NCBI RefSeq assembly: GCF_013167455.1
Contig: NZ_CP038328.1
Direction: 5' to 3' (one strand)
Origin: Escherichia coli O157:H7
Lineage (GTDB): Bacteria > Pseudomonadota > Gammaproteobacteria > Enterobacterales > Enterobacteriaceae
DNA: 64,000 nt
Position 1 is the first letter of the stretch. Every line of letters begins with the position of its first letter. Of the stretch, positions 3,001 through 6,000 are shown piece by piece. A program made the position numbers.

Positions 3001-6000
3001 ATGAAAAGGAAGGTAACCACACCACAGCATACCGTGATGGTGCGGGTATCTGGACCATCTGCCGTGGAGCCACCCGGGGGGATGGTAAGCCTGTTATTCC
3101 TGGCATGAAGCTGTCGAAGGAAAAATGCGACCGGGTTAACGCCATTGAGCGTGATAAGGCGCTGGCATGGGTGGAGAAAAACATCAGAGTGCCGCTGACC
3201 GAACCCCAGAAAGCGGGGATCGCGTCATTCTGTCCGTACAACATTGGCCCCGGTAAGTGTTTCCCGTCGACGTTTTACAGACGGATTAATGCAGGAGATC
3301 GAAAAGGTGCCTGCGAAGCGATTCGCTGGTGGATTAAGGACGGTGGCAGGGACTGCCGTATTCGCTCAAATAACTGTTACGGTCAGGTATCCCGTCGTGA
3401 CCAGGAGAGCGCGCTGGCGTGCTGGGGAATCGACAGATAAGCAGAATATTTTGCTGAAAAATGAGGTTTGCTTACATGGACGGATAACACGAAATCCTGC
3501 AAATTGGCAAAATGTAAGTGAATAAAGTCAAAGCAGTTGTTTAACACTCAGGCACCGTAATGATGCCTTTGTCATTTCTGCGCATCTCACGCGCATCTCA
3601 CAACACAGAACCTTTCAGGATGACCCTTGAGGATACCGGTTTGGCTGTCGGTGCCTTTCTGTGGGCTGGATTCCTGTGAGACAAGGTTCATCACTAAAAG
3701 GAAATAACCGATGAATATGATGGCCGTGCCGTTTCACGGCAACTCTCTTTATGTAGTTAACCATAATGGCGAACCATACGTTCCCATGAAACCTGTCGTT
3801 GCGGGGATGGGGCTGGCCTGGCAATCACAGTTGGCTAAGTTAAGACAGCGTTTTGCGTCAACTATAACGGAAATCGTTATGGTTGCTGAGGATGGGAAAC
3901 AACGCAATATGGTGTCCATGCCACTTCGAAAACTTGCCGGCTGGCTACAAACCATTAATCCCAACAAAGTAAAACCCGAAATCCGCGATAAGGTCATCCG
4001 GTATCAGGAAGAGTGCGACGATGTTCTTTACGAGTACTGGACGAAGGGTTTTGTCGTTAATCCCCGTAAAATGAGCGTGATGGAAGAACTCAACCAGGCT
4101 TGTGCTGACATGAAACGGGATAAAAACATTGCCAGTGTGTTTGCTACCGGGCTGAATGAGTGGAAACAGGTTAAAGCCGCGCATGTATCAAAAATCCGTA
4201 CGCTGGTAAATGAAGCGAATATGCTGATTGATTTTGTCCTGGCTGATACAGGCAAAGGGAAAATAACAAAGGCGGATTGATGGGGTGGCTAATGATATCA
4301 GATAAACTCATAACGCTGGTGAAGAGCCTCTGTGTACTTGCCGGCATTTCATTTTCACTAATGCTGGTTGCTCTTTTTCTTTCCATGGCCTGGATGGCGT
4401 TGACTTCGGCAGGGCTGGTGGGGTGAGCATAAACCGAATGCTTTCCGCGTTTACCGTTATTCTGCTGGTGGTCTGTGGTGCGCTTAGTCTGGGGCTGAAT
4501 CATTACCGCGATAACGCCATAACCTACAAAGAGCAGCGCGATAAAAAAGTCAGTGAGCTGGAGCTGGCAAATGCAACCATTACTGATATGCAGCAGCGCC
4601 AGCGTGATGTTGCTGCACTTGATGCCAGATACTCGAGGGAATTAGCTGATGCGAGAGCTGAAAATGAAACTCTGCGTGCTGATGTTGCCGCTGGTCGTAA
4701 GCGCCTGCGCATCAACGCCAACTGTCCAGGCTCCTTGCGTAAAGCCCCCATCACCTCCGGCGTGGATAATGCAACCGGTCCCCGACTGGCAGAAGCCGCT
4801 GAACGGGATTATTTCATCCTCAGAGAACGGCTGATGGCAATGCAGAAGCAACTGGAAGGAGCACAGGAATATATCCGTACCCAGTGTATACCGTGATGTT
4901 TTGTTACGAAGGTGTTACTGGTAACGTTAAGGTAATTTAACAAAGAGTCAGTTCCGGACTTTATAGTGTGCTCAGTTCATGGCCAAAAACGATTTCTGTG
5001 ATAAATATTTTGAATATTATTTACAGGTAAATGGAGTGGGGCACATGGATAGAAATATTACAATAGAGTATGAAGTATATGCCCGTATTGTATGGGCAGA
5101 GAAGGCAAAAACATGGTAATTCCGTGTGTTGCCATGATACCTGATTGGCAGAATTGTTGTTTGGTTTTGAGTATATAGTCAGCGTCTTTTGTTCGGTAAT
5201 TGCTCTTTCAATTAAAATGCCAGATATGATTTGCTTTTCTTTGTTGTTTAGTTTTTTTGTATATTATTTTTATTGTTTTTATATAATTAGTTTTTTATTG
5301 TTGTCTTATTAAGGACGGTAAATTCAGGATGGCAGTCTGTAGATAAACGGAGGTTACTTATGCTACATGATCACCTGGCAGAATGTCTGGAGAAAAAAGG
5401 ACTGTACCGGAGAGCAGCTGAACGATGGGCAAAAGTGATGGTACAGCTAAGTGATGACCAGAAAAGAAAAGTGGCGGCACAGAAACGAGCAGAGTGTTTG
5501 CGTAAGGCGCGCCGGACTCCGGTTTCACCGGTGAACCTGACCGAAATAAAACAAGCGGTCAACAGACTACATTCTGAGTTGGGAATGGGATTTGAAGAGC
5601 GGCGGGTATTCCGACGATATAAAGGGACAGGAGAACAGAATACGTCCGGAAACGCGCGGTCAAAAAAATGCTAAAAAATATCTGAGAGCGTTATTGCCTG
5701 TTACCATAAGAAAAAGCGACTTTAGTGGTCGCTTTTTGTGTCATATATAAGTCGTTTAAGTAAACCTGTCTGAACAGGTTCTCTGGTCGTGTTTGTCTTT
5801 GTTGGGTACAAATTGAGAATATTTTTCATTAATTAATCTTCTTCTGCAGGCTTCAATAACCCACGCTGAAAAATTTCCTGAACCTTTCAGATCAAGAGCG
5901 ATGTTAATTTGTTCAATCATCTGGTTTGGAAATCGGATGTTGCGGGTTGTTGTTCTGCGGGTTCTGTTCTTTGATGACATAATGTTGCCCCATATTCAGT

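Follow-up and report, generated by a model that had tools for sequence, protein, structure and literature searches.

A pchB gene beside ylcI, a common lambda-type phage gene, in an Escherichia coli O157:H7 prophage

Introduction

The Pch proteins are master switches of the machinery with which Escherichia coli O157:H7 attaches to its host, the enterocyte effacement locus (LEE), and finding one of them matters for annotation. Together with PerC of enteropathogenic E. coli (EPEC), Pch has been described as an activator of LEE1, which it turns on by displacing H-NS/StpA; the dependence on Pch in enterohaemorrhagic E. coli (EHEC) far exceeds the dependence on PerC in EPEC (PMC4764244). Full expression of ler and espA, and adherence, require the group 1 genes pchA, pchB and pchC, as summarised in PMC6265319. 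Here we analyse a pch locus in a 64,000-nucleotide stretch of E. coli O157:H7 (NZ_CP038328.1), which we call the window and in whose positions all genomic coordinates are given. Two convergent genes lie there between the lysis gene Rz and the cohesive-end site cos of a lambda-type prophage: one for a 104-amino-acid (aa) protein and one for a 74-aa protein. An earlier reading of this DNA, the original prediction, had proposed that a PerC-like virulence regulator and a second small DNA-binding protein could form a regulatory module.

The closest described systems say much about the first of these proteins. Expressed alone from pSE380, pchB lifts the output of a ler::lacZ fusion in the MG1655 chromosome from 1,577 to 12,513 Miller units, about 8-fold, and it is the strongest of five homologues on this reporter (PMC5931665). 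PchA was also active in the published assay, and treatment with SOS-inducing drugs induces the group 1 pch genes (PMC5931665). The reporter experiment with pchB alone that the original prediction called for is therefore already in the literature, with a positive outcome. For the second protein there is less to go on: in the literature on ylcI, ynfO and DUF3950 we found no functional study. In 50% or more of RNA-seq samples the K-12 gene pair ybcW-ylcI was classed as a convergent excludon (PMC12288877).

Our results show that the locus is the already-known pchB beside a common lambda-type phage gene, ylcI. We established the identities of the proteins, the mosaic boundaries, the distribution of both genes and the predicted fold directly from the data at hand, and took the activity of PchB from the literature.

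Results

Both reading frames are present where they had been proposed, convergent and separated by 81 nucleotides, and both products are basic, with isoelectric points of 10.3 for the longer and 10.6 for the shorter protein (Table 1). Their family matches are far above chance level, with E values of 6.2e-44 for Pfam PerC and 2.8e-18 for Pfam DUF3950. The 104-aa protein is PchB, a PchABC group 1 activator of the PerC family. Its amino-acid sequence is 100% identical to Sakai PchB (ECs2182, prophage Sp11); among the three Sakai loci compared, single substitutions separate PchB from PchA (L6V) and from PchC (V58M). UniRef labels the exact protein a "PchABC family transcriptional regulator", and several hundred complete O157:H7 genomes share the 1.5 kb around the gene at 100% identity and label it a "PerC family transcriptional regulator".

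The original prediction had described a PerC-like N-terminus. Alignment bears out the homology to PerC and Pch, but the likeness is not confined to the N-terminus: the PerC match (PF06069, 148.6 bits) places residues 1–89 on model positions 1–89 of 90. PHROG families of transcriptional activators match as well. Activation of LEE1/ler by relief of H-NS silencing has been published for the identical protein. Sequence searches of the PDB with PchB gave no meaningful match, and the literature on ECs2181/ECs2182 yielded nothing relevant to a pairing of the two genes.

The 74-aa protein is a member of the YlcI/YnfO family. It scores 34.6 bits against NCBIfam NF041551 (cut-off 30) and also matches Pfam DUF3950 (PF13132) and PHROG 949 (E 1.7e-31). 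In the predicted structure it folds confidently as a ribbon-helix-helix (RHH) dimer, strand-helix-helix with an antiparallel two-stranded ribbon, and the RHH-like character that had been suggested from the sequence is thereby borne out. Only a tandem construct was informative; the AlphaFold2 (AF2) monomer reaches a pLDDT of 65.6, and a Foldseek search of the PDB with this monomer found nothing. HMMER searches of the PDB, with the protein and with its profile, gave no matches either. Profile comparison with hhalign detects a marginal similarity to the Arc family (probability 35.6%, E 3.9e-4, over 26 columns), pairing NIRFP of YlcI with NLRWP of Arc, and in the set compared Arc, NikR, AmrZ and Mnt all score above every negative control and shuffle. 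There is also a weak match to PHROG 497 (HicB-like, E 0.011). YlcI is most likely a dimeric RHH protein transcribed leftward from the cos side, and we infer that it binds DNA. We considered a type II RHH antitoxin and rejected it: the neighbours are the convergent pch and, divergently, cos and Nu1, and YlcI is not an antitoxin because no open reading frame (ORF) for a partner toxin is present.

The YlcI family is a small one; 1.84 billion representatives include 106 clusters of it at 50% identity. Divergent homologues, at 38–50% identity, retain invariant I, R, F, V, W, A and C positions, and some of them are found in chromosomal, non-phage settings. Many apparent relatives lie on contigs of about 3.5 kb that resemble error-laden copies of lambda, presumably nanopore reads of lambda control DNA. 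Because of these contigs the apparent diversity of the family is inflated.

The two genes meet at a mosaic boundary. A cassette between Rz and the conserved core of ylcI carries pchB, and homology to lambda, the K-12 prophage DLP12, phage 2851 and Sakai Sp9 breaks off on its left at 4874–4886 and on its right at 5833–5846, inside ylcI; homology to Sp9 stops at 4886. The cassette contains a 46-aa ORF, an AT-rich leader, pchB, a hairpin and the last 27 or so codons of ylcI. The three Sakai loci pchA, pchB and pchC have the same block, as do strains EC12 and A25. Its right boundary falls just past the predicted second helix of the RHH core. Therefore the cassette gives YlcI a new C-terminal tail and leaves the fold untouched. 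Outside pch-bearing genomes, conservation of ylcI with the window is limited to about the first 47 codons.

Divergence within the cassette is uneven. Short T-rich direct repeats (D2 and D3) lie in the AT-rich region upstream of pch, which presumably serves as promoter and leader. With 45–76 differences per roughly 465 nucleotides between loci (about 10–16%), the pch upstream part is the most divergent part of the cassette, and pch itself shows only 1–2 differences among Sakai A, B and C (under 1%). Such divergence suggests copy-specific regulation. Among the loci compared there is hardly any variation in pch, in the intergenic region or in the ylcI tail. The most divergent group 1 pch locus that we found is that of A25, with 18 differences in the 315 nucleotides of pch. 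The unannotated 46-aa ORF is open at all six pch loci compared, with substitutions and amino-acid changes and without frameshifts.

Between the stop codons of pchB and ylcI lies a symmetric hairpin. It has a GCGAC/GTCGC stem with a 5-bp G+C-rich core, a 7-nucleotide loop and A5 and T5 flanks, and it is identical at all six pch loci compared. The predicted folding energy is −14.7 kcal/mol on the plus strand (z −4.9) and −11.2 kcal/mol on the minus strand (z −5.2), and none of 200 shuffled sequences was as stable. A simple consensus terminator scan made no call at 5711–5743. The bidirectional terminator that had been proposed is plausible: the symmetric and unusually stable structure is a candidate intrinsic terminator common to pch and ylcI.

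How often pch and ylcI occur together was assessed in 5,426 complete E. coli genomes and 50,697 phage records. In the genomes, pch DNA matched 1,874 places, spread over 672 genomes, with an identity of at least 99% in essentially every case; for ylcI DNA the count was 9,752 places and 4,170 genomes, K-12 ylcI (DLP12) and ynfO (Qin) included. At most 19% of the ylcI copies have pch as a neighbour. Among the phage records 151 encode YlcI, lambda and many Shiga toxin (Stx) phages among them, and one encodes Pch, a 1.5-kb fragment from EDL933. Co-occurrence holds in one direction only: pch is nearly always beside ylcI, and ylcI is mostly without pch. In Sakai Sp9 ylcI comes straight after the same lysis genes, without pch. 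A common operator would be expected to show as a repeat shared by both genes; a search of the pch and ylcI upstream regions for such repeats found none.

At the Sakai pchA locus (Sp4) the neighbour is broken. There pchA abuts IS629 and the core of ylcI has been removed. The junction with IS629 corresponds to window position 5837, a few bases from the mosaic boundary inside ylcI, and the start of ylcI and cos lie about 3.5 kb away, beyond an inverted lysis segment.

Lambda itself carries an intact ylcI. At 48109..48303 of NC_001416, on the minus strand and about 200 bp from the right cohesive end, there is a 64-aa ORF identical to K-12 YlcI that is absent from the annotation. The interval between Rz and cos in lambda also holds bor, lambdap78 and lambdap79, and the earlier statement that lambda carries little there does not stand.

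Table 1. Features around pchB and ylcI in the window
Feature	Position	Strand	Remarks
Rz-like spanin gene	4423..4896	+	"lysis protein" in the annotation of an identical genome
Rz1-like lipoprotein ORF	4649..4834		embedded in the Rz-like gene
pch cassette, mosaic, about 950 bp	4887..5845		between Rz and the conserved ylcI core; not in lambda, K-12 DLP12 or Sakai Sp9
46-aa ORF (MAKNDFCDKYFEYYLQVNGV...), unannotated	4979..5119	+	PHROG phrog_2157, E 1.1e-37, full length
AT-rich region, 25–30% G+C	5125..5350	+	upstream of pch; composition profile
pchB allele, 104 aa	5360..5674	+	ATG-start ORF
Symmetric hairpin, AAAAAGCGAC-TTTAGTG-GTCGCTTTTT	about 5711-5743 (G+C stem 5716-5738)		fold energies
ylcI-family gene, 74 aa	5756..5980	-	ATG-start ORF, convergent on pchB
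YlcI residues 48-74	5756-5838		variable tail, from the pch cassette
YlcI residues 1-47	5839-5980		conserved DUF3950 RHH core
Inverted repeat, 13 nt, ATCAATTAATACG / CGTCATAATTGAT, 7-nt spacer	6050..6082		70-100 bp upstream of the ylcI start
cosN cohesive end, GGGCGGCGACCT	6180-6191	+	read from the sequence
Nu1-like terminase small subunit gene	6367..6912	+	divergent from ylcI, with cos in between; an identical genome has it as "terminase small subunit"

The remaining landmarks frame the locus on both sides. The Rz-like gene, with which the late lysis genes end, bounds the variable slot on the left; it shares 82% DNA identity with lambda Rz, up to window position 4874. On the right, 5833–6179 is 89.6% identical to the right end of lambda, the match ends at window 6179 (lambda 48502), and the cohesive end follows directly. 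The inverted repeat upstream of ylcI lies inside this lambda-conserved stretch and is a candidate YlcI operator, by inference only. A consensus promoter scan called no promoter for pchB or ylcI. Between cosN and the start of Nu1, at 6218–6342, there are three motifs of the CATGTCGG(A/T)CC type in direct and inverted orientation, which are probably binding sites of the small terminase (cosB R sites), with a sequence unlike that of lambda's. An 85-aa ORF on the minus strand (5996–6253) runs across cosN and matches PHROG 9395 (E 7e-29); it probably belongs to a spurious ORF family that arises from the conserved cos region. An Rfam scan of 4300–6700 returned nothing beyond chance matches to eukaryotic families, and the PADLOC defence models gave no credible match.

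The block of Rz, pch and the 74-aa ylcI precedes cos and Nu1 in the window, in Sakai and in EC12, and an HNH gene with an HK97-type terminase in A25. The prophages that carry it sit next to ydfJ in Sakai, at ompW in TR01 and, in the window, with the right end against uspF-ompN-nifJ, as in FRIK1989. We rejected the idea that the window holds the TR01 ompW prophage: only a late/head region of about 12 kb matches TR01. Compared over window positions 1–30000 with Sakai Sp11, Sakai Sp9 and TR01, the prophage is a mosaic; its late, head and tail genes are 97–99.9% identical to Sakai Sp11, and at their end stand three NleG-type (DUF1076) effector genes.

The DUF3950 domain also occurs outside YlcI. 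Proteins of 120–129 aa (for example P0222 and P0242) consist of a DUF3950 domain fused to the N-terminal 50 or so residues of a small terminase (TerS; Pfam Terminase_2), that is, to its N-terminal DNA-binding part. The fusion genes lie at 4001–4390 of locus L012 and within 3590–4363 of L018 (E. coli CP027459.1), and also in L019 and L020, in small elements with an integrase and a primase that resemble phage satellites. The element in CP027459.1 has a stand-alone 60-aa DUF3950 gene as well, and adjoining it are an HNH gene of a prophage, that prophage's own ylcI and a truncated terS. A link of these fusions to Rpp, a protein of phage-inducible chromosomal islands (PICIs), was considered and rejected; Rpp is a winged-helix protein (PMC6739421). 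The packaging-defence system TerI of Listeria is unrelated to the fusions.

Discussion

Our results are best explained if pchB and ylcI are two unrelated genes that became neighbours through the insertion site of a phage accessory cassette. We put the probability of this at roughly 85%. The pch cassette sits in the variable slot of a lambda-type prophage, from Rz to the cos-proximal end. PchB is a known activator of the PerC family, which frees the ler promoter (LEE1) of EHEC from silencing by H-NS. Its gene points the same way as the late operon, and two routes of transcription are therefore open to it: in the lysogen from the AT-rich region upstream, and in the induced prophage also, presumably, by Q-antiterminated late read-through, which fits the reported rise of group 1 pch transcripts after SOS-inducing treatment. 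The other gene, ylcI, belongs to the core of lambda-type phages; it encodes a small, predicted RHH protein and is read leftward, from the cos side. The cassette supplies it with a new C-terminal tail and with the shared hairpin, which most likely ends both transcripts when the prophage is uninduced and so would insulate the two genes from each other.

The dedicated two-gene regulatory module that the original prediction envisaged is not supported by these results, since ylcI is a widespread core phage gene that is mostly without pch, and PerC-family activators work in settings without it. Nevertheless, several observations weigh against our explanation. All inspected group 1 pch genes with intact flanks (Sakai pchB and pchC, EC12, A25 and TR01) are beside a convergent 74-aa ylcI, and the two stay together as a block although the packaging module downstream is of two different kinds. 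The 74-aa tail variant of ylcI is found in 670 genomes, nearly the same number as has pch. Only 2 differences fall in the 164 nucleotides of intergenic region and ylcI tail in A25, a part more conserved there than pch itself, which could reflect recent recombination or a constraint on the shared 3' region. O157 genomes contain 8–12 ylcI-like copies and K-12 two. Hence, YlcI could still have acted in trans in the published pch assays, because the hosts carry copies of ylcI. A functional link is conceivable for the same two reasons: all inspected intact group 1 pch loci keep ylcI, and the assay hosts carry it.

One could therefore argue that pch and ylcI are a functional pair in which YlcI represses or tunes pch, or in which the convergent transcripts interfere with each other as in an "excludon". 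The block structure, the genome-level co-occurrence and the conserved 3' region would all be expected of such a pair, and transcriptional interference in this slot is conceivable because the K-12 counterpart ybcW-ylcI has been scored in this way. We nevertheless think a pair very unlikely. Four-fifths or more of the ylcI copies do without pch, pchB cloned alone activates ler::lacZ, Sakai PchA is active although its gene has no intact ylcI next to it, and EPEC perC has no ylcI. The upstream regions of the two genes share no operator-like repeat, and a strong hairpin stands between them. Moreover, genes that are 80 bp apart need no functional cause to be tightly linked. A broader version, in which the YlcI protein or its convergent transcription modulates whichever accessory gene fills the slot between Rz and cos, seems to us quite unlikely. 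If it were true, it would mean that the state of the prophage controls Pch in EHEC and hence LEE expression.

It is also possible to see ylcI as a packaging gene for which the neighbouring pch is irrelevant. YlcI could have its binding site at the cos-proximal right end, or it could influence the small terminase; the fusion of DUF3950 to the DNA-binding part of small terminases hints at a role of this kind. The gene is always found at the lysis-packaging junction, beside cos-Nu1 or HNH-TerS, and in the window, DLP12, lambda, phage 2851, Sp9, EC12 and A25 it lies there on the strand opposite to the late operon. An inverted repeat between ylcI and cosN, in a stretch conserved with lambda, would suit this role too. 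The orientation, however, is what one would expect of a gene expressed in the lysogen and not of a late packaging gene; some divergent homologues are not in phages at all; and the packaging redirector of the PICIs is no RHH protein. We regard it as unlikely. That the 74-aa ORF is a decaying, non-functional remnant with a C-terminus overwritten by the cassette is hardly credible. It is true that ylcI is unannotated in lambda and in the Sakai RefSeq record, that the C-terminal third of the protein has been replaced and that the family is small even with the noisy reads of lambda DNA counted in. But the ORF is intact at every uninterrupted locus that we inspected, the invariant positions are kept by divergent homologues, the RHH dimer is predicted with confidence, the replacement begins only after the RHH core, and K-12 ylcI is transcribed (PMC12288877). 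Two unrelated genes brought together by a cassette thus remain our preferred explanation.

What does this mean for the study of EHEC? The allele in the window is the textbook pchB, and to what is known of this gene our analysis adds nothing new. There are two modest by-products. One is that pch travels as a cassette with defined mosaic boundaries that rewrites the C-terminus of its neighbour. The other is that ylcI is a widespread RHH gene, present even in phage lambda, and a cheap target for a knockout.

The closest relative of the locus is Sakai Sp11. Window positions 3575–9000 are 99.9% identical to it, the order of antirepressor, Rz, pch, ylcI, cos and Nu1 is the same, and the pchB gene itself does not differ. 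EPEC PerC belongs to the same Pfam family and is 47% identical to PchB over 87 residues, but the setting is another: PerC has 89 aa and is encoded on a plasmid (pMAR7, the EPEC adherence factor or EAF plasmid) by the third gene of the perABC operon, with neither ylcI nor cos nearby. Among RHH proteins of the Arc/MetJ/CopG type, such as Arc of P22 and TraY of F, YlcI finds only marginal sequence similarity. The satellite-like elements with DUF3950-terminase fusions resemble the helper-embedded satellites described in bioRxiv 10.1101/2022.07.18.500453.

For ylcI the proper comparison is with K-12 and lambda. K-12 YlcI (DLP12), YnfO (Qin) and the lambda ORF have the same DUF3950/YlcI_YnfO_N core as the protein in the window, about 90% identical over residues 1–53, and in K-12 and lambda ylcI has the same position and orientation beside cos and the Nu1 homologue. 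The tails differ: the lambda and K-12 proteins have 64 aa and end in ...TSEKRAYTSIKSDEE, whereas the protein in the window has 74 aa and ends in ...INEKYSQFVPNKDKHDQRTCSDRFT. The convergent neighbour differs as well, being ybcW in K-12, lambdap79 in lambda and pch in the window. In lambda the "moron" slot with bor, lambdap78 and lambdap79 has the same bounds, from Rz to ylcI and cos, and likewise houses accessory genes equipped with signals of their own. The cargo in the window is a virulence regulator read in the direction of the late operon, whereas in lambda bor and lambdap78 lie on the opposite strand.

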